Part shown: positions 1,790-59,003 of the stretch, in pieces
Numbering within the stretch: the first letter of the stretch is position 1
Layout: each line of letters begins with the position of its first letter
Source: Candidatus Woesearchaeota archaeon
GTDB taxonomy: Archaea; Nanobdellota; Nanobdellia; Woesearchaeales; DSVV01
Reading direction: 5' to 3'
Assembly (NCBI GenBank): GCA_016214075.1
Contig: JACRPI010000005.1
Location: 2,662 to 66,661, forward strand
DNA length: 64,000 nucleotides
Notes under the pieces: generated by a model
Database searches by the model: none
What the model was told of the DNA's origin: nothing
What the model saw: only the letters and a program-made list of their open reading frames with translations
Made by a program: the position numbers and the translations under genes

Positions 1790-3130
1790 CTATTGTTCTT
1801 CAGATGATTCTTGTTCATCTTCTGTATCTTCAGTGTCCTCGTCTTCAGATTCATCTTCGCTTTCTTCAGTTTCACTGTCAGAAGAGTCATCATCAGATTC
1901 TGCAGCTCGAGATTCTTTCGCATTTTTACGCGCTTCCTTTGCTTCATCACGAGAAGCTTTTATCTCTTCACGTGCTTCATCGCGAGCAGCTTTAATTTCC
2001 TCTCGTGCTTCATTACGTGCAGTTTTTATCTCTTCACGTGCTTCATCGCGTGCGGCTTTAATTTCTTCTCGCGCTTCCTCACGTGCTGTTTTCATTTCTT
2101 CTCGTGCAGCTTTTCGTGATTCTTTAACAGCTTCACGCATGTCTTTCGCGAGTTCTTTTGCTTCTTTGACAAGTGCTCGTGCTTCTTCAGTGAGACTCTT
2201 TACTTCTTCTTTGTCAAAGTCAGCTGCGGCAATTGCTATTTCATCAGCGATCGCTTCAAGCTGCGCGATAATTTCATTAAGTTCTGCGGAACCTTCTGCG
2301 TCACCGTAACGGTCAGCGAGTTTTTGAAGATTGTTCAATCGCGCAAGAACAACAGTGGATTTTGCGTGTGCGTAGCCGCTTCGCGCTTCTCCCCAAGCTT
2401 CTTTTGCTTCATCATCTTCAGTGGATTCTTCTTTATAATCTCCAACTGCTTCAACAACAGCACTCACTTCAACATCATTTTCTTCAAATAATGTTTTTGC
2501 TTCTTCGCGTGCATTCTGTATAATCTCTTTGACTTGTTCATGCACTGCTTCAAAATCACTTTCAGGTGTTAAGCTGTCGCGAAGTGCTTCAAGTTCAGCT
2601 ATGTATGCTTCAATAGCGCTGGTATCAACGTCAGGGAAGTTTTCGTTCAAGTATGCGATAACTCCCTCTGCTGTTAAGATTTTCTCTGTCATAAAATAGT
2701 ATGCGCGTGCATATTCAGTTTCATCCTGCGCTTCTTCCATTGCTGTAACGTCTGCTTCAACATCTTCAAGTTCTAATTCTTCAGCTTCTTCTTCAGTGAT
2801 TGTTTCTTCACTTTCAGTTGAATCTTCTTCATCAGCTTCTGCTGTGGATTCTTCATCATCAGCACTTTCTTCAGCTTCTTCGCTTTCTTGTTCAGAATCA
2901 TCAGTTTCAGTGTCTTCAGAACCTGTTTCTTCGGTAGATTCTTCACTATCATCGCTTTCTTCAGTTGTTTCATCTTCTGCTTCTTCAGACGTTTCCTCGT
3001 CGCTGCTCTCGTCATCAGTGGTCTCTTCTGCGTCTTCAGTTTCTTGTCCTTCTTCTGCAGCAACGCTTACTGCGAAAAGAGAAAAGACAACAAGAAACAC
3101 CATCAATAAAGAATACATTGTTTTGTTCAT
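1790..3130 (-). CDS. Secreted, highly acidic protein with tandem AREEIKAARDE repeats
   Basis: Signal peptide MYSLLMVFLVVFSLFAVSVAA from an internal Met. Asp/Glu-rich N- and C-terminal regions. About five 11-aa repeats encoded by 33-bp DNA repeats at about 1925-2115. Confidence 0.7.
   Translation of the reverse strand: MNKTMYSLLMVFLVVFSLFAVSVAAEEGQETEDAEETTDDESSDEETSEEAEDETTEESDDSEESTEETGSEDTETDDSEQESEEAEESADDEESTAEADEEDSTESEETITEEEAEELELEDVEADVTAMEEAQDETEYARAYYFMTEKILTAEGVIAYLNENFPDVDTSAIEAYIAELEALRDSLTPESDFEAVHEQVKEIIQNAREEAKTLFEENDVEVSAVVEAVGDYKEESTEDDEAKEAWGEARSGYAHAKSTVVLARLNNLQKLADRYGDAEGSAELNEIIAQLEAIADEIAIAAADFDKEEVKSLTEEARALVKEAKELAKDMREAVKESRKAAREEMKTAREEAREEIKAARDEAREEIKTARNEAREEIKAARDEAREEIKASRDEAKEARKNAKESRAAESDDDSSDSETEESEDESEDEDTEDTEDEQESSEEQ
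1925..2115. repeat. Tandem 33-bp direct repeats (about 5.5 units) inside the acidic-protein CDS
   Basis: tcttcacgtgcttcatcgcgagcagctttaatt-type units read directly in the sequence. Confidence 0.8.
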
Positions 3131-3345
3131 GTTCTCATCCTCGTTTTTCTTTGTATATCCCAAATACAAAGGTGTTTAAATATTTTATTAGTGGAAAGAG
3201 GAATGCATGCAATGCATGGTCCATGGCGGGTGTGTTGCACAGGATCCATGCATTGCGCATCCATCATACGCACTACAGATTCTGTAGCTGGAAACTATAT
3301 TACTAATTTTATGGAAACTATGGAAACTATAGGTCTTGAAAAATC

Positions 3346-6855: not shown

Positions 6856-7245
6856 ATGGAAGTTATTATTGTTCTTTTCTTATTATGTACATTTCTTCTC
6901 TTATTCATTTTCTTTTTTGCTCGATTTGAGTGGATCATCAAAGAAGCGCGCCATATATGCTCTTTACCTTCAGGATATTTTAAGTTAGGCCAGATAACTT
7001 TACTCTCTTTCTCTGTAATCATCTTTATCATTTTATTAATACATAATCTTATTATAGAGAGAGAAACATCAAGCCTTGATATTTTTCTTACTGTAATTGT
7101 GGGTTTTTTAGGAACAATATTTGGAATGTTTTTTGGTGGAAAGGGAGAAGGGGAAGTAACAAAAGAAAGAATATTAGCGACAGCTGAGGCAAAGAACCTC
7201 ATTAAAAGTTATGAGGAGATATTTGAGAAATACTTAAAAAAGTGA
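6856..7245 (+). CDS. Small membrane protein (hypothetical)
   Basis: Three predicted TM segments and a charged C-terminal tail. The competing minus ORF 6846..7202 looks less protein-like. Confidence 0.35.
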   Translation: MEVIIVLFLLCTFLLLFIFFFARFEWIIKEARHICSLPSGYFKLGQITLLSFSVIIFIILLIHNLIIERETSSLDIFLTVIVGFLGTIFGMFFGGKGEGEVTKERILATAEAKNLIKSYEEIFEKYLKK

Positions 7246-7425
7246 TTATAAGTAAAAGAGACGATCTAATTTCTCTACAACATGTTTGGAGCGGTCTCGA
7301 AGTAGTCGAAGTTCGCGCAGATCTTTAGGGCTGATTATTATAGTTTGTTCATTTCTCCGATCTTTTGATTTGTTCGTCATGAAAAATATTAAGAGAATCA
7401 TCTATATAAAGAATTCGTTTTACTC

Positions 7426-7743
7426 CTACTTTCTCCAAAGCACAACAGTATTCCCTACAATCGAAATGAGAGTAGAACCAGTTTTGAGAGCAAGTTCCTC
7501 GCCTAACTCCCGCTTGGTCATGGGAATATCATCCATAAAGTTTCTTAAGAGTTTAATTTTCACTAATTTATGTGATTTCAGTTGTTTTATGATCTCTTGA
7601 AAGAGTGTCTGACCAAGTCCAGCTTTTCCAATGCGAACAAGCGGCTCTATTGCGTGTGCTTTTTTTCGAAGGGAAATAAGCTGCAACGTATTCAATTCAG
7701 GAGCTTTTTGTTCAGGTAATGCTGAAATTTCGTGTTCATCCAT
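7426..7743 (-). CDS. YhbY/CRS1 (CRM-domain) RNA-binding protein
   Basis: LRKKAHAIEPLVRIGKAGLGQTLFQEIIKQLKSHKLVKIKL matches the CRM-domain core (GKxGlt...elvKvk). Confidence 0.75.
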   Translation of the reverse strand: MDEHEISALPEQKAPELNTLQLISLRKKAHAIEPLVRIGKAGLGQTLFQEIIKQLKSHKLVKIKLLRNFMDDIPMTKRELGEELALKTGSTLISIVGNTVVLWRK

Positions 7744-7791
7744 TATTCTTTGAAGAATTATAGCTCATTTATATAGATGACTTTGAATATA

Positions 7792-7880
7792 GTAAATATC
7801 CTTAGATTTCGAACCGGCTATAGGATATTTACTATTCAGCAGAAATCCACCAATGTTCGAATCTCATGGATTTCTGCTAT
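7792..7880. promoter_or_regulatory. Two tandem perfect 12-bp-stem hairpins with loops each containing TTCGAA
   Basis: tagtaaatatcc-[ttagatttcgaaccggctata]-ggatatttacta, then agcagaaatcca-[ccaatgttcgaatctca]-tggatttctgct. Confidence 0.45.
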
Positions 7881-7914
7881 AACACGATTTTTGAGCATTT
7901 ATGCAAATGCATCT

Positions 7915-8112
7915 GTCAAGAACCACCAATCATCGCTCACTTCGTTCGCTATAGATTGGTGGCATGATCGAGGTGGTTCTTGAGCATGTTACGAATATAG
8001 CACCTTCAAAAAAACGAAGGTGGACTGATTGAACTATGTTCAATTCATTACGAATCGCAATTCGAAATGTTGTCCACTGGTTACTAAACCAGTGGTATAT
8101 TCGAAACATATT
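7915..8112 (+). repeat. Family-A structured repeat, copy A1 (with an internal ~47-bp insertion relative to A2)
   Basis: aagaaccacc...ggtggttctt outer stem, caccttc...gaaggtg and ccactggtt...aaccagtgg hairpins, ends ggtatattcgaaacatatt. About 90% identical to 13915-14072. Confidence 0.6.
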
Positions 8113-8211
8113 GAGAATTTTGGCAACTTGAAAGATCCTCAACATTATCAATAACTTCACTCCGAAAGTTTTATATGCATGAAGTAGTAAAAACAGGCAT
8201 AAGGGGCGATC

Positions 8212-9966
8212 ATGGCGGAAAATGTATTCATTGAGCTCAGTATAATCATTTTGATAGCAATAGGATTCGCAGCATTAATGCGACTCCTCCGTCAGCCATT
8301 GATTATTGGCTATATTCTGACTGGTATTGTCGTCAGTCCATATTTCTTGGGTTTATTTAGGAGTTCAGAAGATATTACCACATTTGGGCAAGTAGGCGTT
8401 GCGCTTCTTTTGTTTATGGTGGGTTTGAGTCTAAATCCACAAGTCATACGAGAGGTAGGGAAAGTTTCTATTATTACTGGGGTCGGTCAGTTGTTATTTA
8501 CCGCGATTGCGGGGTTTTTTATCGCAAAATTGTTAGGATTTTCCGTCATTACGGCAGTATACATTGCGGTTGCGTTAACTAATTGCAGCACGATTATTAT
8601 TCTCAAATTAATCTCAGATAAAGGAGAGTTAGATAGATTATACGCGAGGATTACTATTGGCTTTCTGCTTGTTCAGGATTTGATCGCGATTCTGATTCTC
8701 ATGTTTATTTCTTCGTCAGCAGGTGGAGGAACATTTGCGCATATTCTCACAGAAACAGTGGTGAAAGGAGTAGGCGTACTTGCGCTATTATTTGTCGTTG
8801 GCATGTATGTGTTGCCTGCGTTAATAGACCGTGTTGCGAAATCGCAGGAGTTCTTGTTATTGTTTTCCATAGGGTGGTGTCTGCTTCTTGCGGCGTTTTT
8901 GTGGTACCTTAATTTTTCACTTGAAATTGGCGCTTTGCTTGCGGGAGTGACACTTTCGCTTTCTCCATATCGTCATGAAATTAGCGCGAGAATGAAACCC
9001 CTCCGAGATTTTTTTATCATCTTATTTTTCATAATCATTGGGTCACAGATGAATTTTCAGAATGTAACGTACTCATTCTGGAGCATTATTCTTTTCTCTT
9101 TGTTTATCTTGATAGGAAATCCATTGATTCTGATGATAATTATGGGCGCGCTTGGCTACACAAAAAAGACAAGTTTCCTCGTTGGGCTTTCTGTTGCGCA
9201 GGTAAGCGAGTTTACATTTATCATGATTGCGCTTGGTATTAAAGTGGGTCACGTCCCGCAGGAAATAATGTCTCTGGTGACAGTGGTGGGTATGATTACC
9301 ATTGCAGGTTCCACATACATGATCATGTACGCAGATAGATGGTATTGCATCTTCGAGCCATATTTGGGAATATTTGAGAGAAAGGGAAAGAAAATAGATG
9401 GCATAAAAAAGCAAAAGACAAAAGCGTACGATATTATTCTTTTTGGGTACAACAAAATGGGATACGACCTTCTGGATTCATTTAAGAAACTCCGCAAAAA
9501 GTTTTTGATCGTTGACTACGATCCTGATATCGTTCGGCGCTTGACGAATGAAGGATACGATTGTCAGTATGGCGACGCAGAGGATATTGAATTATTAGAA
9601 GATCTTAATGTGGGAAAAACAAAAATGTTAGTTTCAACTATACCAGATCTCCGTGTGAATGAGATTATTATTGCAAAAGCGCGAGAGCAGAATAAAAGTG
9701 CAGTGGTGATTGTTCTTTCTAATCATATTGAAGACGCAATCAGTCTCTATAAATCAGGCGCGACATATGTCGTGATGCCGCACATGGTAAGTGGCGGGCA
9801 TGCCTCTTCGCTTATCAAAAAACATGGAATTGATGTAAAGAAATTTTTCAAAGAGCGTGGAGAGCATCTTAAAGTGCTTCGCGAGCGGCAAAAGAGACAT
9901 AATGTGAGGAAAATTAGCGAGTTATACCATAAATATTTCAAAGGAAAGTTTGGAAAGAAAAAATAA
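8212..9966 (+). CDS. Kef-type K+(cation)/H+ antiporter (CPA2) with C-terminal TrkA-N/RCK domain
   Basis: Polytopic N-terminus typical of the Na+/H+ exchanger family. C-terminal Rossmann segment YDIILFGYNKMGYDLLDSF...VDYDPD. Confidence 0.85.
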   Translation: MAENVFIELSIIILIAIGFAALMRLLRQPLIIGYILTGIVVSPYFLGLFRSSEDITTFGQVGVALLLFMVGLSLNPQVIREVGKVSIITGVGQLLFTAIAGFFIAKLLGFSVITAVYIAVALTNCSTIIILKLISDKGELDRLYARITIGFLLVQDLIAILILMFISSSAGGGTFAHILTETVVKGVGVLALLFVVGMYVLPALIDRVAKSQEFLLLFSIGWCLLLAAFLWYLNFSLEIGALLAGVTLSLSPYRHEISARMKPLRDFFIILFFIIIGSQMNFQNVTYSFWSIILFSLFILIGNPLILMIIMGALGYTKKTSFLVGLSVAQVSEFTFIMIALGIKVGHVPQEIMSLVTVVGMITIAGSTYMIMYADRWYCIFEPYLGIFERKGKKIDGIKKQKTKAYDIILFGYNKMGYDLLDSFKKLRKKFLIVDYDPDIVRRLTNEGYDCQYGDAEDIELLEDLNVGKTKMLVSTIPDLRVNEIIIAKAREQNKSAVVIVLSNHIEDAISLYKSGATYVVMPHMVSGGHASSLIKKHGIDVKKFFKERGEHLKVLRERQKRHNVRKISELYHKYFKGKFGKKK

Positions 9967-9995
9967 TGAGATGCAATTTTTATTGACCAGAGGCA

Positions 9996-10865
9996 TTATT
10001 TGTGTAAGCCTTCTTTGCTTTTCACTTCTTTTCCAGTACCATAAAAAGTGTCTTCAACAACAAGACCAATTTTCTTGAGCATATCGCTTGCGACAAGTCC
10101 AGCATGACCTATTTCCCCTTTGACTACGTCACCGCAAAGACCGTTAATGTATGCGGCGGCGATTGCGCTGTGGAATGGATCTTTTGTTTGTGCGTAAAAG
10201 CCAACAGCTAATCCCGCGAGAATATCACCGGTGCCGCCAACAGTCATTGCAGGGTTGCCTGTTTTGTTGTACGCGACTTTGCCATGGCCGTAAATCATAT
10301 CTACATTCCCTTTGAGAATAATGATGTTGGATCCAATATATTTATTCAACTGAAGTTTTCGAATATGCGTATTCTCAAGAAGCATTTGAAATTCGCGTTT
10401 ATGAGGCGTTAAGATGGAGTTTTTTGTCTCTTTCAAACTGATTGCTTTGATAGCGTCAGCGTCAATAACAAGGGGTTTATTTTTCTTGCTGAGTTCTTTG
10501 ATGACATCAATGCAGAATTGGTGTGATTTTCGTCCAATACCATTGCCAATAAGAACTGCGTCAAAATCTTTTGCGAATTTCACGACAGCGTTGACGTGTT
10601 TTTTGTCAAAATACAAGCAATCAAACTTTTTGGTGATGAGATCAGGCGCAAGTGCGTTTAGCGCCCATGCGACTTTTGTCGGAGCTGCGACAGTGACAAT
10701 ATCAACCCCGCTGCGCAGTGCGGCGATACCTGCGAACGCGACAGCGCCAACGTAATCCTGGCTTCCGCCAATGAGAAGAACTTTGCCAAAATCTCCTTTT
10801 TTTGACGTGGGAAGTCGTTGAGGAAGTTTCAATTTTCGAACATCTTGTCGTGTAATATATTTCAT
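9996..10865 (-). CDS. nnrD: ADP-dependent NAD(P)H-hydrate dehydratase (YjeF C-terminal / carbohydrate-kinase domain)
   Basis: GGTGDILAG motif, VLLIGGSQDYVGA, about 289 aa stand-alone NnrD domain. Confidence 0.85.
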   Translation of the reverse strand: MKYITRQDVRKLKLPQRLPTSKKGDFGKVLLIGGSQDYVGAVAFAGIAALRSGVDIVTVAAPTKVAWALNALAPDLITKKFDCLYFDKKHVNAVVKFAKDFDAVLIGNGIGRKSHQFCIDVIKELSKKNKPLVIDADAIKAISLKETKNSILTPHKREFQMLLENTHIRKLQLNKYIGSNIIILKGNVDMIYGHGKVAYNKTGNPAMTVGGTGDILAGLAVGFYAQTKDPFHSAIAAAYINGLCGDVVKGEIGHAGLVASDMLKKIGLVVEDTFYGTGKEVKSKEGLHK

Positions 10866-10928
10866 ATAAGTCTATTTTGGAATATTGAAATATTTAAGCT
10901 TTTGGATTTGTTCAACTTATTAGAAAAT

Positions 10929-11717
10929 CTACTTCTTGATCTTAACATTCCCTGCAGGCAGCATCCGTATAATTTCATCAATCGTTCCTACTTTAAACTG
11001 CGAACGAAGCGTTTTTGCGAGATCGCTTGGTTTTTGTTCTCCTTGTACAATTTCGACAAAATGTTCTGCGTGCGCTTTGATCGCGGCGTAAGGTCCTGCG
11101 ATAATCCTTCCTTGTTGAACACCAAACGCAAATCGCATGTCATGATCAATATAATGCATTTTTCCTGTGATGACAAACGCGCCGCGTTCAACATATTCTC
11201 CTGCTTTTGCGGTTTTGGTGACTTGTTCTGGAGTGACCCAGCCAACTTTGACGTTGACAAAGCCAAGTTTCCATGCCCTGCTGTATAGCGCAGTCGCAGT
11301 CGCGGTTTCGTTTATCGTGCGTTCAGAAGGTTCTTTTCCTTCAGATTTAATGACAAAGAAGGGGCTTCCTTGTAAATCCGTGTGAAATATGAGATCTTTT
11401 GGAGCAGTGTGTTTCTTGATAACAAGTTCGTTGGTGATTGCGTCTCTGCCGCCGATCACTAGAAAACCATCAGAAGAGTAAAACCAGTGAAATTTTTCAT
11501 ACCATTCTTTTTTTGGGACGTTTTGGACAGCTGTTTTGTGCGCTTCTACTTTTTGTTCTACTTTATGTTGTTCGTGGAGCGCTGTTTGGAGTTTTTGTTT
11601 GCTGATCTCGAGTGCTTTTTTTGCGCCTTCGAGTTTTTTCTTTGCTTTTTTCGCTTTGTCAAAGTAGATGCCAGCGTTTTCGTGAATAGTTTTCGTGAAG
11701 TTGAGGGAAATTTGCAT
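10929..11717 (-). CDS. NFACT-R (DUF814) RNA-binding protein with N-terminal coiled coil (short Rqc2/NEMF/FbpA-family homolog)
   Basis: DLIFHTDLQGSPFFVIK matches the DUF814 core (lwfHa.d.pGShvvl). Lys/Glu-rich coiled-coil N-terminus. Confidence 0.65.
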   Translation of the reverse strand: MQISLNFTKTIHENAGIYFDKAKKAKKKLEGAKKALEISKQKLQTALHEQHKVEQKVEAHKTAVQNVPKKEWYEKFHWFYSSDGFLVIGGRDAITNELVIKKHTAPKDLIFHTDLQGSPFFVIKSEGKEPSERTINETATATALYSRAWKLGFVNVKVGWVTPEQVTKTAKAGEYVERGAFVITGKMHYIDHDMRFAFGVQQGRIIAGPYAAIKAHAEHFVEIVQGEQKPSDLAKTLRSQFKVGTIDEIIRMLPAGNVKIKK

Positions 11718-11737
11718 GAGTAATTTCCATCTTCTTT

Positions 11738-11747
11738 CCTTTATATA
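11738..11747 (+). promoter_or_regulatory. TATA-box-like element (ctttatataatt) about 25 nt upstream of the GC-rich structured island
   Basis: Archaeal TATA consensus-like tttatata; spacing predicts a transcription start near 11768. Confidence 0.4.
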
Positions 11748-11764
11748 ATTAGTGAAAAAGTCTC

Positions 11765-11874
11765 ATCCCGCCGTAGGCGCCGACGCGACGGGGGAAGGCC
11801 CCTCGGGGTGTCGCGTAGGACAAAATTCGAAGAATTTTGTCCGTAGGCCGCCTGCTGCGGCGGGATGGCAAAGT
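11765..11874 (+). ncRNA. Candidate structured ncRNA (~110 nt, GC-rich island) with a 10-bp closing stem and at least two internal hairpins
   Basis: catcccgccg...cggcgggatg perfect terminal pairing. Internal gcgac-[gggg aagg cccc tc gggg]-gtcgc and a perfect ggacaaaattc-gaa-gaattttgtcc hairpin. Local GC far above the ~38% background, followed by a T-rich tract. Confidence 0.4.
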
Positions 11875-11905
11875 ATTAATAACTAAAAGAATTATTTTAT
11901 CCAAC

Positions 11906-12211
11906 ATGGCCAAAGATTACAAAAAAAAACATCAATCGCAAATCGAATCGCGAATTCGTCATCTCTTTAACGAAGCGCATGAAGTGCGAATTTCAGATAC
12001 ATCTTCCGCGTCGAGATATGTTTTTCTCGCGAGAAAGCTTGCGGCAAAGGCAAAAGTTCGAATTCCAAGAGAACTTAAAAGACAGTTCTGCAAAGAGTGT
12101 AATACATTCTTCATCCCAGGAAAGAATTACACAGTGAGAACAACAGGGAAAACAATCAGCTATACTTGTAAAGTTTGCAAGAAAATCACGAGAATAGGAT
12201 ATAAAAAATAA
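11906..12211 (+). CDS. rnp4: RNase P protein component 4 (Rpp21/Rpr2 family)
   Basis: Start taken at MAKDYKKK. ASRYVFLARKLAAKAKVRIPRELKRQFCKECNTFFIPGKNYTVRTT...CKVCKKITR is the Rpp21 signature with a CxxC...CxxC zinc ribbon. Confidence 0.8.
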   Translation: MAKDYKKKHQSQIESRIRHLFNEAHEVRISDTSSASRYVFLARKLAAKAKVRIPRELKRQFCKECNTFFIPGKNYTVRTTGKTISYTCKVCKKITRIGYKK

Positions 12212-12418
12212 ATATCATCTTTCTCAAGCCTTCAGCCCCCTGGCAGCCCGTATCTTAAACATTTCGAAATTCTATCTTTAACTTATTTATGCATATTATA
12301 AACACAAACAGAATTTCGTAATGTGTTAAGAACCACCGCATAAGATTTTGAAAGGTGGTTCTAAACAAAATCGAGAATTGGTATACTCACATTCAATAAG
12401 AGTTCAAGAAAAAAGAAT

Positions 12419-12613
12419 CTATGGTTTGAACATATATTTGAACTCGTTTCGTTTGCCTGTATTTTTGTATTTTACTAATTGACTTTTTCTGAGTTTTTTC
12501 AAACTCATCGTGACTGAGCCAATAGAAACATCAATGCTTTCGCTGATCTGTTTAGAGGTGAACCATTTGTTCTTATTCTCCTTCAAAAAGTTGTAAACTT
12601 CCTGTTGTCCCAT
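12419..12613 (-). CDS. Small winged-helix DNA-binding protein (putative transcriptional regulator)
   Basis: 64 aa; WFTSKQISESIDVSIGSVTMSLKKLRKSQLV is HTH-like. Confidence 0.4.
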   Translation of the reverse strand: MGQQEVYNFLKENKNKWFTSKQISESIDVSIGSVTMSLKKLRKSQLVKYKNTGKRNEFKYMFKP

Positions 12614-12690
12614 ACAGGTACTAGTAATCCAAAGTACTATATAAGTCTTTGGGTAGTTTATTTATAAATGACCCCTCCTTATAAACGCGG

Positions 12691-13341
12691 CTAACCACTG
12701 CCAAAAAGCACAATTTTGAGCACAAGAAGTCCTATCCCAAGGCAAACCATGCCGCCCCAGACAAAGTAATTCCATTTGAAGATTTTCGCGCCATCAAAGT
12801 TCATGAAAGGAATCATATTGAAGATTCCAAGCCAGCTGTTAATCAAAAAACCATATTTTGCGGTTGCGAGCACAAAAGGATGAAGAAATAATGCAGAAAT
12901 CAAAAGAAAAAATAATGCGAAAATATAATTTGTAAGTGGACCGACAGCAGAGATAATTCCATTCTGTCGCGGCGTAATGTGCGGCCCATAAATCATGACA
13001 GCGCCGGGCGCGGCGAATAAGAAGCCCATAAACGAAGAAAACACTGCAAACAATAACATCATATTATCCGCGCGAAATTCTGCCCAGCAATGATAATACT
13101 GCGCGACAAGTTTGTGCATGAGTTCATGCAAAAGAAAGCCAGTTCCAACAGTTGTTGCGGCAATAATAAAAATCAATCCCGTTCCGAGACCGAAAGAAAA
13201 GCCATTCAATAAAATAGTAAACGCAAGACTCACGAAGAACCATGCTTTCAAGAGTTCATGGATTTCAACATCAGAAGTCCTAATTCCCCATATTTTCTTT
13301 TGATGCGGCGCTTGTGCGAAGTACATTGTTCTCTTTCTCAT
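12691..13341 (-). CDS. Site-2-protease-like membrane zinc metalloprotease (M50 family)
   Basis: HELMHK (HExxH) in a TM helix plus downstream NMIPFMNFDG (NxxPxxxxDG), both S2P hallmarks. Multiple TM segments. Confidence 0.65.
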   Translation of the reverse strand: MRKRTMYFAQAPHQKKIWGIRTSDVEIHELLKAWFFVSLAFTILLNGFSFGLGTGLIFIIAATTVGTGFLLHELMHKLVAQYYHCWAEFRADNMMLLFAVFSSFMGFLFAAPGAVMIYGPHITPRQNGIISAVGPLTNYIFALFFLLISALFLHPFVLATAKYGFLINSWLGIFNMIPFMNFDGAKIFKWNYFVWGGMVCLGIGLLVLKIVLFGSG

Positions 13342-13358
13342 GTCAGTCTATTTAAAAG

Positions 13359-13781
13359 TTACTCAAACACAAGAGAATCTCCAATAGCAATCTCCTTTTT
13401 CGCAACAAAGCCCGCGTTCACTTCCAACGCATAGAGTGCAGGTTTTGAGTAATATTTCTCACAATCAGCAACAACACACGGTTCAAAATTCTCCTTAATA
13501 TCAACAATAGTACCAGTACTCTCAACAAAAATAATATCAAGTGGAATCTTTGTATTTTTCATCCAAAACACGCGCTGCTTTTCTTCAGAAAAAACAAACA
13601 ACATGCCAGAATCAGCGGCAAGTTCTGTTCGATACATCAAGCCGATTGCTTGCTCATCAATCGAATCAGCAATCTCAATAATAATAGGAATTTCACTTGT
13701 TACTGTTTTAATGATAACAACATCTTGTGAAGCACAGCTAAGTAAGAAAAAGAAGCAAATGAAGACAAATATTTTTTTCAT
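13359..13781 (-). CDS. DUF192-domain lipoprotein
   Basis: Signal/lipobox FFFLLSCAS; GLMYRTELAADSGMLFVF matches the DUF192 core. Confidence 0.65.
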   Translation of the reverse strand: MKKIFVFICFFFLLSCASQDVVIIKTVTSEIPIIIEIADSIDEQAIGLMYRTELAADSGMLFVFSEEKQRVFWMKNTKIPLDIIFVESTGTIVDIKENFEPCVVADCEKYYSKPALYALEVNAGFVAKKEIAIGDSLVFE

Positions 13782-13914
13782 TACACAACTTGAGGGGTTG
13801 CAGTTCTTATGCTTTACGTTTTCATTCTGTAAACACGCATCATCTTAACATAAACAATCGCTCCACAAAGTCCACATGCACAATTCATCTCTTTTTTATT
13901 AACTTATTTTTGTC

Positions 13915-14072
13915 AAGAACCACCGATCACCGCTCCCTTCGGTCGCTATAGATAGGTGGCATGATCTCGGTGGTTCTTGAGCATGTTACGAATATAGCAC
14001 CTTCAAAAAAACGAAGGTGGACTTGTCCACTGGTTACTAAACCAGTGGTATATTCGAAACATATTAAAATAT
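13915..14072 (+). repeat. Family-A structured repeat, copy A2
   Basis: Near-identical to 7915-8112 apart from the insertion. A third, partial copy of the aagaaccacc...ggtggttct hairpin lies at about 12338-12378. Confidence 0.6.
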
Positions 14073-14197
14073 ATAAAAAAGCATAGGGATTCAGAAGCGA
14101 TAGGGCAAACCAAAAATGATAAGGCGAATCTAAAAGTAATAAAGCGAATAAAGAAGTGAGACAACAACTTTATATATCTCTGCAGCAAAATAACTGT

Positions 14198-14839
14198 ATG
14201 CAAATCATCTTAATAATTTTCATCATTCTCGCGGCAATAATCACAACCCTCTTGCTCCTATGGAAATTCTTCTTCCTCAGAAATCCAACTCCAAATATTC
14301 CAAAGGAAAACAATCTCGTCATAAGCCCAGCAAACGGAAATATCGCGAGAATATACGAATTCAAGAATGAAAAGCAAGCAAAACCAATAATCGCGGAAAA
14401 AGGTTTCTTTGGGAAAATCCCTTTAATCACAAAAGACGTTGCGAAAGAAGGATATATCATTCTTATCCGTTTGCACGTCTATAATGTTCACTGGCAACGC
14501 GCGCCAATTGCGGGAAAAATTACAGAAACAAAATACATTGAAGGAAAATTTCTCAACGCGGTAAAAGATGTCCAAAACATGCAATGCTTTTTTGAGAATG
14601 AAAGAAACGAAATTATAATAAAAGGCAAGATTACCTGTAAAGTCATTCAGATCGCGGGATATCTCGCGAGAAGAATTGAATGCTTTGTCAAACAAGGCGA
14701 TGCAGTAAACGCAGGAGAAATAATTGGACTTATTAATCTAGGAAGCCAAACAGCGCTTATCGTTCCAAAAGTAAAATTAAAAATTAAAGAAGGAGATATA
14801 GTACACGTAGGAGAAACAGTTATTGGTGAAATGAAATGA
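14198..14839 (+). CDS. psd: Archaetidylserine/phosphatidylserine decarboxylase proenzyme (pyruvoyl-dependent, archaeal short form)
   Basis: N-terminal TM, conserved LGSQT self-cleavage-type motif (LINLGSQTALIVP), about 210 aa. Start taken at MQIILIIF, inside the longer ORF. Confidence 0.75.
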   Translation: MQIILIIFIILAAIITTLLLLWKFFFLRNPTPNIPKENNLVISPANGNIARIYEFKNEKQAKPIIAEKGFFGKIPLITKDVAKEGYIILIRLHVYNVHWQRAPIAGKITETKYIEGKFLNAVKDVQNMQCFFENERNEIIIKGKITCKVIQIAGYLARRIECFVKQGDAVNAGEIIGLINLGSQTALIVPKVKLKIKEGDIVHVGETVIGEMK

Positions 14840-17125: not shown

Positions 17126-17282
17126 AACTCATCCCTCAAGAAGATCATACAAAGTGTGATGTTTTTAAAGGTTGTGAAAGCATACTTGTAATGCGTAACT
17201 ACTCTAAAGTACTAACAAAACCAAAAACTATATAAATAAGTGCCTTCACTACTATTGCTAAGTAACACATTAGGGGACGATG

Positions 17283-17555
17283 ATGACAGAGACGACGACA
17301 CAAGAAAAAGCACCAATTCCAGCAGCAGATATTGCTATGATTGTGCAAAACGCGGTGAAGGAAAAAGTTCCTCAAAATGCGGTTATTATTGAGGCAAAAC
17401 CTCTTCTCGCTCGTGATTATGTTGATCCAGTTGATGAGCAATACAAGCTCGAGAGAAAGAACAAAATAGGAACTATAGAGCACAGAGAATCCGCTGAAGG
17501 AATCGGATCCTTACATGCGTTTTTCCTAAGCGCTGGCGACATGCCAGAACTATAG
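17283..17555 (+). CDS. Small hypothetical protein
   Basis: 90 aa ORF preceded by aggggacg (RBS-like), in an otherwise gene-free gap. Confidence 0.3.
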   Translation: MTETTTQEKAPIPAADIAMIVQNAVKEKVPQNAVIIEAKPLLARDYVDPVDEQYKLERKNKIGTIEHRESAEGIGSLHAFFLSAGDMPEL

Positions 17556-17735
17556 TGAACGCACCAAATTATCGTAATAAAAATAGTGCGTTCACTATTC
17601 CGCAGACGCAAATAAGTTACGATAATTTATTGCGTCTACCATATAATCATACTCATCCCAGAGGTGGAGCAAGGCACAAGGATTTTACTCGCATCATCCC
17701 TCCGTGTGTTTATTGCTCCACCGCTTTTTTTTCTC
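17556..17735 (+). other. Hairpin cluster ending in an oligo-T tract (candidate small RNA or terminator cluster)
   Basis: 13-bp inverted repeat tagtgaacgcac...gtgcgttcacta, second hairpin gacgcaaataa...tttattgcgtc, then ggtggagcaa...ttgctccacc followed by TTTTTTTT. Confidence 0.35.
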
Positions 17736-17776
17736 TATCAAAAACTATTTAATATCAGCTTCTTAATTTTTCTATC

Positions 17777-20221: not shown

Positions 20222-20286
20222 GTAATAGTCTGATTTTCTTATTCTCTTTCATTTCATTCTCATTATTTAAGTATGTTTTCTCTCTA

Positions 20287-20440
20287 AAATTAAATAATAA
20301 AAGAATGGAGATTCAAAAGGACTGTAAGGCGAATAAAATGCAGAGGCAGCTATTTATTTCAGCCTACAAGAAAAAACACGCACAAGCAAAGCAAAATGTC
20401 AGGGGGACCCAATGCTCCTTAAGGAGCATTGGGGTATTAT
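20287..20440 (+). repeat. Family-B repeat, full copy B1
   Basis: aaattaaataataaaagaatggagattcaaaaggactgtaaggcgaat...acacgcacaagcaaagcaaaaTGTCAGGGGGACCC-AATGCTCCttaaGGAGCATT-GGGGTATTAT. Confidence 0.6.
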
Positions 20441-42267: not shown

Positions 42268-42315
42268 AATTATTCATGTTGTGTCATATTCTTCATCTCT
42301 TAATACGTTTTGAAA

Positions 42316-42467
42316 AATAAATAATAAAAGAATAGGGATTCTCAAGGACTGTCAGGCGATTCACACAGCAACAAGGCGATTGTTTGCCTAGCAACAGAGC
42401 AAATACACGCACCAGTAAAAGCTAAATTGTCAGGGGGACCCATCACGTAGTGATGGGATTATTATGA
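42316..42467 (+). repeat. Family-B repeat, full copy B2
   Basis: gaaaaataaataataaaagaatagggattctcaaggactgtcaggcgatt...aaggcgatt...acacgcaccagtaaaagctaaatTGTCAGGGGGACCC-ATCACgtagTGAT-GGGATTATTAT. Confidence 0.6.
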
Positions 42468-49783: not shown

Positions 49784-51382
49784 GTGGTAATGCATTTTTC
49801 GTTGAACAAAAAAATACTCAACAGTATTATTTCTTTTTTGATTTTTATTTCAATTCTTACAGCAGTTTCCGCGCAGGATTATCTTGCGTTGCAGGGAAGC
49901 GCGGCAGGTTCTGGTAGAGGAATAGGAAGTGGGACTGGGCAAGGAAATATTACTATTGAGATTTGGGGTGCAGCAACAGGAGGTTCTTTGCTTTATAACT
50001 CTACATCAGATTTTTGGGGTGCGTTAAATAATAGTAGATATGATATTTTACTTGGAAATGGGTCGCAGCCATTAAATCTCAATTTTTCAAATACATATTT
50101 CATGGAAATCTACATTAATGAGAGAGAATTGGATTTTAATGGAACTGAACGACAGGTTTTTCAGAGTCCAGTAGGAAATATTACAGTGACGACGCCGATT
50201 AAAACAACAAATAGTTTGAACGTGAATGATTTCTTTAATGTAACTGGGTCAACGAGTGTAGTTAGAACAAATGGGACAGTGATGATTTTGAATGCTGATG
50301 TTGATGATGCGTTGAACGTCTCTGGTGCAGTTTTCTCAGACACTCAATTTAAAACAGATGGACCAATTATTAGTATAGCGGCAGCAACAGCATTAGGTTT
50401 GGATGTCAGCGGCTTTGCGACCGTTGCCAATTTCTTCAACGTGACTCCAGCAACAAGCGCAGTACGAACAAATGGGACAGTAACTATAATTAATGCAGAC
50501 GTAGATGACGCGTTGAACGTGACAGGAGCTACATTTTCAACATTGCAAGTTAAGACAGATGGTGGATTCATTAGCCGTGCGGCAGCAACAGCGCTAGGTT
50601 TGGATGTCAGCGGCTTTGCGACCGTTGCCAATTTCTTTAACGTGACTCCAGCAACAAGCGCAGTACGAACAAATGGGACAGTAACTATAATTAATGCAGA
50701 CGTAGATGACGCGTTGAACGTTTCAGGTGGGTTAAAGATGGGTTCAGAACCAGGGTCAGCATTCACCTTTGCAAGTTTTACTATCAGCGACCAAGGTGTC
50801 GTCACAACTGATGCAAACATTGGACCAGTTGCAGGAAGAGGGAATGTGATCATCAATAGTCTCACAGAGCCAGCGTTGAGAATTAACTCAGGATTCAACG
50901 TGAGTGGGACAACAGGAAATCTCAAAACAAATGGGACAATTACCATTACAAATCTTGATTCAGACGATGCGTTCAACGTTAGCGGTGCCTCTATCTTTAA
51001 AGATAAGGTCTTTATCTCGGGTCCTGCTCCAGATCCTATATTTACAGTGAACAATGGGTTTAATATCAGCGCAAGTAATGGTGCAGTTAGAACAAATGGA
51101 ACAATTACCATTACAAACCCTGATACAGACGATGCGTTGAATGTCACAGGAAGCATTGCGCAGCAAGGACCTGCGTTCACTATTGGCAATGCAGATTCAA
51201 CGACACAAAATCATGTTGATATTTATGATGGGGGATCAAACAAATGTGCGTATCTTACATTATACGATGAGAATGGTGGTCCACATTATTTCTGGACGAA
51301 TACGACTGGTGGTCTTCTCACTGCGTCTCTTCCACCAATTAATTGTGATGGAGAAGGAACAACTGTAGGTTCACAAGCATAG
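49784..51382 (+). CDS. Secreted tandem-repeat surface protein rich in N-glycosylation sequons
   Basis: Signal peptide, then about six ~56-aa repeats (NVTxxTSxVRTNGTVxIxNADVDDALNVSG). Near-identical 168-bp DNA repeats at about 50393-50560 and 50561-50730. Confidence 0.75.
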   Translation: MVMHFSLNKKILNSIISFLIFISILTAVSAQDYLALQGSAAGSGRGIGSGTGQGNITIEIWGAATGGSLLYNSTSDFWGALNNSRYDILLGNGSQPLNLNFSNTYFMEIYINERELDFNGTERQVFQSPVGNITVTTPIKTTNSLNVNDFFNVTGSTSVVRTNGTVMILNADVDDALNVSGAVFSDTQFKTDGPIISIAAATALGLDVSGFATVANFFNVTPATSAVRTNGTVTIINADVDDALNVTGATFSTLQVKTDGGFISRAAATALGLDVSGFATVANFFNVTPATSAVRTNGTVTIINADVDDALNVSGGLKMGSEPGSAFTFASFTISDQGVVTTDANIGPVAGRGNVIINSLTEPALRINSGFNVSGTTGNLKTNGTITITNLDSDDAFNVSGASIFKDKVFISGPAPDPIFTVNNGFNISASNGAVRTNGTITITNPDTDDALNVTGSIAQQGPAFTIGNADSTTQNHVDIYDGGSNKCAYLTLYDENGGPHYFWTNTTGGLLTASLPPINCDGEGTTVGSQA

Positions 51383-53747: not shown

Positions 53748-53912
53748 CATCATAAATACCCCATTACACTTTAGTGTAATGGGTCCCCCTGACATTTTTG
53801 CTTTACTGGTGCGTGTATTCTTCTTTACTATTAAACAATAATTCGCCTTACTACTACATGAATCGCCTTATTGTCCTTTTGAATCCCCATGTCTTTATTA
53901 TTTATTTTTTAA
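53748..53912 (-). repeat. Family-B repeat, full copy B3 (reverse orientation)
   Basis: Reverse complement reads aaataaataataaagacatggggattcaaaaggacaataaggcgattc...aaggcgaatt...acacgcaccagtaaagcaaaaaTGTCAGGGGGACCC-ATTACACtaaaGTGTAAT-GGGGTATTTAT. Confidence 0.6.
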
Positions 53913-58720: not shown

Positions 58721-58835
58721 AAGGTATTTTTTGCGCAGTTCTTGTTTATATGTTTTGTTGAAGGAAGGATATCATTTATCTTTTCCGTTGTTTTGTGGGG
58801 ATTTTGTGTATTCATCTATTTTTACAAACTCCATA

Positions 58836-58946
58836 AAACCCCATTGCACTCAAGTGCAATGGGTCCCCCGGGCATTTTGCTTTTGCTGGTGCGTGTTTTG
58901 AAGCTTGTCGTAGCCCAGTGTAGCTTTGAATCGCCATACTCCTTTA
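58836..58946 (-). repeat. Family-B repeat, truncated copy B4 (reverse orientation; CCCGGG variant of the TGTCAGGGGG box)
   Basis: ccCCATTGCACtcaaGTGCAATGGgtcccccgggcattttgcttttgctggtgcgtgt...ggcgattcaaag. Confidence 0.55.
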
Positions 58947-59003
58947 CTGTCAGGGGGACCCATTCCAACGCGCTTTTGCGTTGGAATGGGGTATTATTAA
59001 GGT
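58947..59003 (+). repeat. Family-B 3' module copy B5, head-to-head with B4
   Basis: cTGTCAGGGGGACCC-ATTCCAACGCgcttttGCGTTGGAAT-GGGGTATTATTAAGG. Confidence 0.55.

Follow-up and report, generated by a model that had tools for sequence, protein, structure and literature searches.

Bacteria carry several families of IS630-related MITEs (miniature transposable elements with inverted repeats) that duplicate a TA target, among them Correia/NEMIS in Neisseria, RUP in Streptococcus pneumoniae, Nezha in cyanobacteria, and MITEEc1. MITEs are also known in archaea, including the SM-type elements of Sulfolobus and the haloarchaeal MITEs and PATEs. A different kind of small bacterial repeat is represented by repetitive extragenic palindromic (REP) doublets, BIMEs and REPINs, which occur together with RAYT (TnpA-REP) proteins (PMC3116915, PMC3733652, PMC6006769). 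A census that names MITEEc1_IS630 reports that, within the archaea, MITEs are densest in DPANN genomes, that of one Woesearchaeon included (PMC11602168). Here we describe a twin-hairpin element in a 64,000-nucleotide (nt) stretch of DNA (hereafter the window) from a Candidatus Woesearchaeota archaeon (assembly GCA_016214075.1, contig JACRPI010000005.1). With a probability of roughly 0.8, this element is one copy of a non-autonomous, mobile miniature element, that is, a MITE.

Like the IS630-related MITEs of bacteria, the element is ~100 nt long and non-coding, has inverted ends and TA flanks, is mostly intergenic and often promoter-adjacent, and would form hairpins if transcribed. Those MITEs fold as one long foldback in which the outer ends pair, whereas here the arms co-vary within each of two separate hairpins and the outer ends match at only 9 of 12 positions; the host, moreover, is a DPANN archaeon, and no related insertion sequence (IS) is known. 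Bacterial REP doublets share with it the inverted pairing of palindromes a few nucleotides apart, compensatory stems, a conserved foot and occasional insertion into an open reading frame (ORF). Unlike REP doublets, it has no linked Y1 gene that we could find, its GTAG-like foot is base-paired and variable, and its TA flank is symmetric; copies also appear to number in the units rather than in the hundreds per genome. Archaeal MITEs, for their part, are likewise small non-autonomous elements in intergenic DNA. We know of no earlier description of a twin-hairpin layout with stem-variant sister families. We could not match the family to a published archaeal MITE in a comparison that did not extend to the sequence lists of the census (PMC11602168), and it is best filed as a new MITE-like family with an unusual, REP-doublet-like layout.

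The two hairpins, H1 and H2, and the features that delimit the element are as follows.

7788..7789, no strand: left flanking TA, a putative copy of a target-site duplication (TA precedes TAGTA in 10 of 10 aligned copies, and a TA-duplication model fits two empty-site reconstructions).
7790..7879, plus strand: 90-nt core of the mobile twin-hairpin element, TAGTAAAT...TTCTGCTA (homology to other copies confined to 7787-7881; 117 bits with the covariance model).
7789..7835, plus strand: hairpin H1, with TTCGAA at 7808 (fold, perfect stem, and compensated alignment pairs 19-48 and 23-44).
7838..7878, plus strand: hairpin H2, with TTCGAA at 7856 and a loop that repeats that of H1 in inverted orientation (compensated pairs 62-98 and 64-96).
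7880..7881, no strand: right flanking TA (alignment of copies).

A preliminary description of this DNA had reported two flawless hairpins with loops carrying TTTCGAACC and GTTCGAATC, and had linked them to local repeat and insertion biology. The hairpins are real and lie far beyond chance, the loops read as described, and the link to the repeats and insertions of this region holds. The stem of H1 extends further, to a perfect 14 base pairs (bp) (tagtaaatatcc paired with ggatatttacta; arms 7789-7802 and 7822-7835) closing a 19-nt loop, and that of H2 is a perfect 12 bp (agcagaaatcca paired with tggatttctgct; arms 7838-7849 and 7867-7878) closing a 17-nt loop; the gap between them is 2 nt (7835 to 7838). 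The pair folds with z = -7.25 as RNA and -6.9 as DNA, and none of 200 shuffles folds equally well. Perfect hairpins of at least 10 bp with loops of 3-30 nt number 11 in the whole 64 kb; when one mismatch is permitted, the window has 12 hairpins against 3.3 in shuffles, and H1 and H2 are then its sole adjacent pair, none being found in 20 shuffles. The plus strand of H1 aligns with the minus strand of H2 (TATAG.A.A.ATCC...TTCGAAC...GGAT), which shows the pair to be one module present in two inverted copies.

The twin hairpin is dispersed. A degenerate pattern for one hairpin, run against 185,579 species-representative genomes, returned four loci, all in archaeal metagenome-assembled genomes (MAGs), two of them on separate contigs of a single Woesearchaeota MAG; the second hairpin was present at all four, though the pattern did not demand H1 and H2 together. 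Scanning metagenomes with an H2 pattern gave seven further full or truncated copies (L011, L012, L013, L017, L018, L020 and L023; L numbers denote related loci), as well as six chance matches without H1. The unit is present on at least ten other archaeal MAG or metagenome contigs with unrelated flanks, and all-against-all BLAST confines the homology to L007-L013, L017, L018, L020 and L023 to ~95 bp of the window (7787-7881). Our alignment holds ten copies (the window, L025, L011, L008, L023, L009, L012, L017, L020 and L007), with L013 outside it. The family consensus is TA/TAGTAAATATCC-ATAGAWWTCGAACA..AATT-GGATATTTACTA-T(T)-AGTAGAAATCCA-CAAATGTTCGAAAGTNA-TGGATTTCTACTA/TA, the slashes marking the ends of the element. 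With its 90-nt core, 95-bp homology block and lack of coding capacity, the unit has the size of a MITE, a class of element of about 50-800 bp, and it shows the distribution of one: several copies at non-orthologous sites, and presence/absence polymorphism.

Insertion contexts vary and are in part disruptive. The L023 copy lies inside an ORF for a four-helix-bundle protein (23S-IVS-protein-like) that adjoins the 3' end of a 23S rRNA gene, and the L013 copy separates the S19e and L39e genes, between which the window has ~5 nt. Copies in L007, L008 and L012 sit 8-31 nt upstream of start codons, that in L020 lies between two convergent stop codons, and that in L010 overlaps the last codons of a radical-SAM gene. 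We also considered carriage by viruses, and rejected it: in two hairpin-pattern scans of viral contigs, all matches were coding sequence or unrelated palindromes that had arisen by chance.

Covariation ties the arms of each hairpin to one another. Across the ten copies the two-hairpin structure is 96.4% paired, and four pairs (19-48, 23-44, 62-98 and 64-96) have changed on both sides, in at least two clades; pair 62-98, for example, went from UA to CG in the window clade. None of 500 shuffles reaches the observed covariation score, and when the 3' partner is slid by 1-3 columns only 32-43% of positions pair. A single long foldback with the outer arms paired was rejected, as the compensated changes occur only in the two local hairpins. 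Such maintenance of complementary stems suggests a probable role, in mobility or in host tolerance, for a folded single-stranded DNA (ssDNA) or RNA form.

The family covariance model also recovers relatives with different stems: window 17544-17650 (43 bits, E = 1.4e-5), L035, L003 6327-6430 and L007 6253-6351. The first of these corresponds to the following element.

17553..17641, plus strand: second twin-hairpin element, of a sister family (fold z = -7.1; TA at 17551-17552 and 17642-17643).

It reads TA/TAGTGAACGCAC-21 nt-GTGCGTTCACTA-ttcc-GCAGACGCAAATAA-loop-TTATTGCGTCTACCA/TA and shares the feet of the first element (TAGTGAA...CACTAT tcc GCAGA...), while its upper stems and loops differ; its TAG is the stop codon of the upstream ORF 17280-17555. 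The L003 relative (TATAGTAAACGACAC...GTGTCGTTTACTAT-TC-TAGTAACGGACA...TGTCCGTTACTA) is a fourth stem-variant element, located directly downstream of yhbY and flanked on either side by a diverged copy of the 3' end of yhbY, at a position where other relatives have a 45-nt spacer. The L007 relative is degenerate and has AAATGTTCGAAAA once more as its H2 loop. In both L007 and L023, ~100-200 nt separate the first element from another twin-hairpin repeat, whose ends read TATAATGG...CATTATA; of the form TATAATGGCGA...TCGCCATTATA ttc TGAGGAACGCA...TGCGTTCCTCA, it spans L007 7806-7901 and L023 963-1058 and is 86% identical between these unrelated loci. The families have in common their feet (TAGTRRA/TYYACTA), the two-hairpin layout and a linker (TC/TCC) of 1-4 nt; they differ in upper stems and in loops, with TTATCGTAA or other loops in the sister families.

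TA flanks the left end in ten of ten copies and the right end in nine of ten. For the L023 copy, deletion of 92 nt (90 plus one TA) rejoins the interrupted ORF in frame as ...KEFVHFLNTAFASAKEVE..., and the rejoined ORF aligns without a gap across the junction to the homologous helix of PDB 2gsc_A. For the sister element, the window (17551-17643) is exactly 91 nt longer (89 plus TA) than the orthologous empty site GAACTG/TAATC in L037 and L038; L035 carries the sister element, and a G/A difference in the left flank at this site falls on the synonymous third position of a Leu codon. Both cases fit duplication of a TA target. The pattern is that of a short target-site duplication at a strict TA, of the IS630/Tc1-mariner type, with exceptions in L035 and L003. 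The presence of TA on both flanks and the two reconstructions in which element plus 2 nt is gained point to a TA-duplicating DDE transposase. In all, four empty sites were reconstructed: GTTATA/TAAATG, GAACTG/TAATC, CTTAA/AAAATCG and GGAC/TTGTCC.

The first of these empty sites is that of the twin hairpin itself, which lies between two divergently transcribed genes.

7426..7743, minus strand: yhbY-like CRM-domain gene (Pfam PF01985, E = 1.3e-21), with a TATA box at ~7766-7776 by alignment to relatives.
8212..9966, plus strand: Kef-type Na+/H+ exchanger with a TrkA-N domain; promoter-like AAAGTTTTATATG at 8165-8177.
7776..8153, no strand: block of ~378 bp without counterpart in syntenic relatives, made up of 12 nt, the twin hairpin, a 33-nt spacer, a repeat element termed A1 and a 41-nt tail.

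The genes for Rpr2, NFACT and a CRM-domain protein, together with promoter-like AAAGnTTTATATA boxes, mark the organism as an archaeon, and its closest named relatives are probably Woesearchaeota MAGs. In five syntenic relatives that keep the same divergent gene pair, the spacer between yhbY and the antiporter gene is 91 (L002), 92 (L003), 32 (L005), 82 (L024) and 90 nt (L027) long, against 468 nt in the window. Alignment places the ~378 extra nucleotides (7776-8153) at a break inside the shared TATA-box sequence GTTATA/TAAATG. On either side of the block, the flanking sequence aligns to the empty site, and the parts aligned overlap, with weak statistics. A terminal inverted repeat of the whole block, or a long target duplication, was considered for the 378-bp insertion and rejected, the similarity being weak and statistically unconvincing.

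Part of this block is strongly conserved. Positions 7776-8112 (the 12 nt, the twin hairpin, the 33-nt spacer and A1) are 98-99% identical in L025 (1-300) and L026 (31-372), whereas the adjoining yhbY coding sequence is only 85% identical in these lineages; the similarity ends exactly at the 3' end of A1, and the sequence beyond it is unalignable. Gene identities are themselves mosaic: YhbY of the window is 92% identical to that of GCA_964385055 and 86% to that of the ERZ27254754 strain, and a 257-amino-acid protein is 86% and 95% identical, respectively. The presence and absence of the two insertions are also incongruent across lineages. Together, the mosaic lineages and this incongruence make lateral spread of the block by recombination plausible; purifying selection could serve as an alternative account of its conservation. 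The only public contig that encodes an identical YhbY, L001 (Logan SRR12113407), ends at window position 8001, inside A1, which suggests a repeat-induced assembly break.

A1 belongs to a second repeat family, the A family, which is separate from the twin-hairpin family and whose members have a 5' AGAACCACC hairpin in common. Its members in the window are the following.

7912..8112, plus strand: repeat element A1, with a 5' AAGAACCACC hairpin, a 3' stem of CATGTTACGAATATA with TATATTCGAAACAT, and TTCGAA at 8100 (94-100% identical to A2; 98% in L026).
8027..8069, plus strand: mini-element nested in A1, 43-44 nt, ending ...CATTACGAATCGCAATTCGAAATG, with TTCGAA at 8061 (A1 compared with A2; target duplication of at most 1 nt).
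13909..14065, plus strand: repeat element A2, with TTCGAA at 14053 and no adjoining twin hairpin (comparison with A1).
12260..12366, minus strand: 107-nt insertion, a short A-family member, with TTCGAA at 12263 (absent from L002 and L003).

In its minus-strand orientation, the 107-nt insertion consists of the AGAACCACC hairpin and a stem of CACATTACGAAATTCTG with CAGAATTTCGAAATG. The 3' end of the family is an imperfect stem, CATT-A-CGAA/TTCG-A-AATG, with a conserved A.A mismatch, and its insertions duplicate at most 1 nt. A loop core, TTCGAA(A)CAT, is alike in the twin hairpin and at the A-family 3' end. By analogy, the layout of the A family is reminiscent of elements moved as single strands.

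We propose that the twin hairpin, as a MITE, would move in the following way. The unit TAGTAAATATCC-loop-GGATATTTACTA, 1-3 nt, (T)AGYAGAAATCCA-loop-TGGATTTCTRCTA would insert at a TA, which then flanks both ends. Being non-coding, the element must depend for its movement on an enzyme encoded elsewhere. The likeliest candidate would be a TA-duplicating DDE transposase (IS630/Tc1-mariner-like, or of a TA-specific IS5 subgroup) that recognizes the terminal feet TAGTRRA, and we put this mechanism at about even odds if the element is indeed mobile. The two hairpins of the element would descend from inverted copies of one ancestral module, the complementarity of the stems being kept by selection or by arm-to-arm correction. 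The window copy would then belong, with other small insertions, to the ~378-bp block that sits in the TATA-box region separating the divergent promoters of yhbY and the antiporter gene.

Several observations weigh against this account. The visible copy number is low: each family has a single copy in the 64 kb, and one MAG contains two, the latter figure counting strict-pattern matches in fragment data rather than in a whole genome. No cognate transposase or full-length IS was found by Pfam among 20 of the ~61 ORFs of the window, which gave housekeeping genes only; nor was a transposase seen beside other copies in ORF lists and translations inspected without a domain search, the neighbours there including ribosomal protein L1, methionine aminopeptidase, a Fic-domain protein and radical SAM proteins. 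The outer arms, TAGTAAATATCC and TAGTAGAAATCC, are imperfect terminal repeats that match at 9 of 12 positions, and their pairing with each other is ~77.5-80.8% across the ten copies, with no compensated change. Each outer arm instead co-varies with its inner partner, which a transposase that binds double-stranded ends would not predict. The TA rule has exceptions in the left flank of L035 (TG, at a synonymous third codon position) and the right flank of L003 (AT), and both reconstructions fit equally well a TA-ending element that inserted beside a TA without duplication. The insertion in the window is not a clean TA event, as it sits in a larger block, and the same holds for L003; there are hints, with weak statistics, of ~20-nt diverged target duplications in the window block and the L003 element. 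Finally, identity of 98-99% in the block next to 85% in the coding sequence means that simple vertical descent of junk DNA fails as an explanation.

Some of these points would be expected of an archaeal counterpart of REP doublets (REPINs or BIMEs), in which the two inverted palindromic units would fold into ssDNA hairpins, to be cut and rejoined by a Y1 HUH enzyme (IS200/IS605 TnpA-like or RAYT-like) that inserts the element beside a TA without true duplication. The element is built from two short palindromes, 1-3 nt apart, whose loops are inverted copies; compensatory change in the stems accompanies constant feet and, in some copies, a constant loop, as in REP families (PMC3733652). The hairpin foot is GTAG or GTAA in most copies, and the outer ends lack covariation. 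The A-family elements, too, duplicate no more than 1 nt on insertion, and an imperfect hairpin with a conserved A.A mismatch forms their end, so that a system of the ssDNA type may be active in this genome. The element thus shares with REPs the inverted doublet of palindromic units with compensatory stem changes, but it lacks their unpaired GTAG/CGTC tail: its foot is GTAA in H1, GTAG or GCAG in H2 and GTGA in the sister family, and is base-paired. The GTAG lies within the stem, and it is not conserved (GCAG in H2 of the window). Only a symmetric 2-nt flank is conserved, where HUH enzymes normally need a one-sided target of 4-5 nt. No Y1 gene was seen near any copy in the DNA examined, the copy number looks low, and the REP-associated Y1 subclasses are not reported from Archaea, where only the IS200-type subclass 1.1 has been seen (PMC6006769). 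On balance we regard an HUH or ssDNA mechanism as unlikely, both as a rival to the MITE interpretation and as the mode of movement within it. A bolder form of the idea would make the twin-hairpin family, and perhaps the A family, the first archaeal equivalent of the REPIN-RAYT system, with ssDNA hairpin doublets moved by a Y1 HUH enzyme, each stem-variant family tracking its own enzyme, and the conservation of 7776-8112 being a sign of selection at the level of the host or of co-option, for instance as a module close to a promoter; we consider this more doubtful still.

The preliminary description had also drawn attention to the palindrome TTCGAA and suggested that it is a protein-binding site shared by the repeat families, or their insertion target. 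Every site that it listed is present (7808, 7856, 8061, 8100, 14053, 12263 and 11826), the site given there as 11841 being the end of the hairpin that contains 11826. The motif does recur in both loops, in the 3' stems of the A family, in the nested mini-element and in the insertion at 12260, and the loop core common to the twin hairpin and the A-family 3' end adds to this pattern. Intergenic DNA holds 11 sites against 4.9 expected, and ten sites cluster within 4.6 kb (7665-12268; scan p ~1e-4). Six of the eleven intergenic sites, however, are in paralogous repeat copies, and four of the ten clustered sites are in ordinary coding sequence. Over the window as a whole TTCGAA is depleted (23 sites against 39.95 +/- 5.55 expected; 100 of 100 shuffles have at least 23), with 12 sites in coding sequence against 34 expected, a depletion like that of many other 6-bp palindromes here. 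Avoidance of such palindromes extends across the window (CCTAGG, CGGCCG, GCCGGC, GGGCCC and TAGCTA have no site, and ATCGAT has 4 against 22 expected) and may reflect restriction-modification pressure.

Comparison between copies speaks to the function of the motif. The conserved core of the twin-hairpin loops is the asymmetric TCGAACA. In H1, the loop TTTCGAAC occurs in five of the ten aligned copies (the window, L025, L011, L008 and L023); the other five have AATCGAAC (L009, L012, L017 and L020) or TTTTGAAC (L007). The L013 loop is also AATCGAAC, and the H1 loop of the truncated L018 copy is lost at the contig end. TTCGAA in H2 was at least degenerately required by the search patterns, and its apparent conservation there is therefore biased. 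At the apex of the G+C-rich RNA candidate that contains the 11826 site, the motif is TTTAAA in the relative L002, and the sister families carry other loops. TTCGAA is also absent from the insertion point in all four reconstructed empty sites, which places it inside the elements and not in their target. The two proposed roles are hence not supported, that of target being already largely refuted, and we consider either role very improbable. The frequency of the motif in the window is not above expectation, as a negative outcome of the proposed count would have it, while a positional association with the repeats does exist; it arises because two repeat families each carry the motif in a conserved stem or loop. 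TTCGAA is an internal, family-specific and partly conserved part of two repeat families, and not a general signal.

A gene for a structured non-coding RNA, or a fragment left by a tRNA (a T-arm remnant or an integration att site), could also give rise to a strong predicted fold with compensatory changes, and the H2 loop of the window, GTTCGAATC, is T-loop-like. The likeness had been remarked on at the outset, together with the absence of a tRNA fold, and rightly so: ARAGORN finds no tRNA in the window or at 13 related loci, and hence no tRNA gene near any twin-hairpin copy, and the region 7000-14500 of the window has no Rfam match at the gathering threshold or at E<=10. The tRNA-like GTTCGAATC occurs only in the lineage of the window, the family consensus being ATGTTCGAAAG. 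The stems are A+T-rich, in contrast to the G+C-rich structured RNA candidate nearby, and the element is absent at orthologous positions of close relatives and lies inside an ORF in L023. An origin in RNA or tRNA is accordingly the least probable of the explanations considered.

The window contains other structured or repeated sequences. The G+C-rich structured RNA candidate (11760-11870) lies upstream of the RNase P Rpr2 gene and has no Rfam match; its conservation in L002 and L003 is ~96%, apart from an additional hairpin of 48 nt that is inserted in L002. At 17655-17745, the hairpin CCCAGAGGTGGAGCAAG...CTCCACC and the T8 run behind it are conserved in all aligned relatives; this is hence no insertion, and could be a small RNA or a terminator. 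Hairpins of the form CCCATT(A/G)CAC...GTG(T/C)AATGGG followed by TCCCCC make up a repeat family (53755-53819, 58835-58899 and 58959-58990) located in the window's two longest intergenic stretches, with a similar CCCATTCCAACGC hairpin nearby. A repeat of 47-52 nt, AAAAATAAATAATAAAAGAATRGRGATTC..AAGGACTGT.AGGCGA, occurs twice (20286-20332 and 42313-42359) and is 88% identical at L011 717-768, ~110 nt from the L011 twin-hairpin copy. In-frame tandem repeats are found inside two ORFs, with a 33-nt period at 1907-2137 (ORF 1790-3169) and with units of 165-258 nt at 50229-51152 (ORF 49790-51382). Finally, repeats of a replication origin were considered and rejected: no Orc1/Cdc6 was found by Pfam among 20 ORFs of the window, and the GC skew is not clean.

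The 90-nt unit, with its TA flanks and two co-varying hairpins, provides a clean diagnostic that can mark insertion polymorphisms and explain assembly breaks, and that can keep such hairpins from being mis-annotated as fragments of tRNAs, as terminators or as regulatory palindromes. For several copies the distance to a start codon downstream is 8-45 nt, and the elements may therefore rewire leaderless archaeal promoters. Should the mobilizing enzyme prove to be an HUH protein, REP-type systems would be extended to Archaea. DPANN genomes are tiny and streamlined, and active selfish repeats within them would thus be informative on genome dynamics and on recombination between strains.

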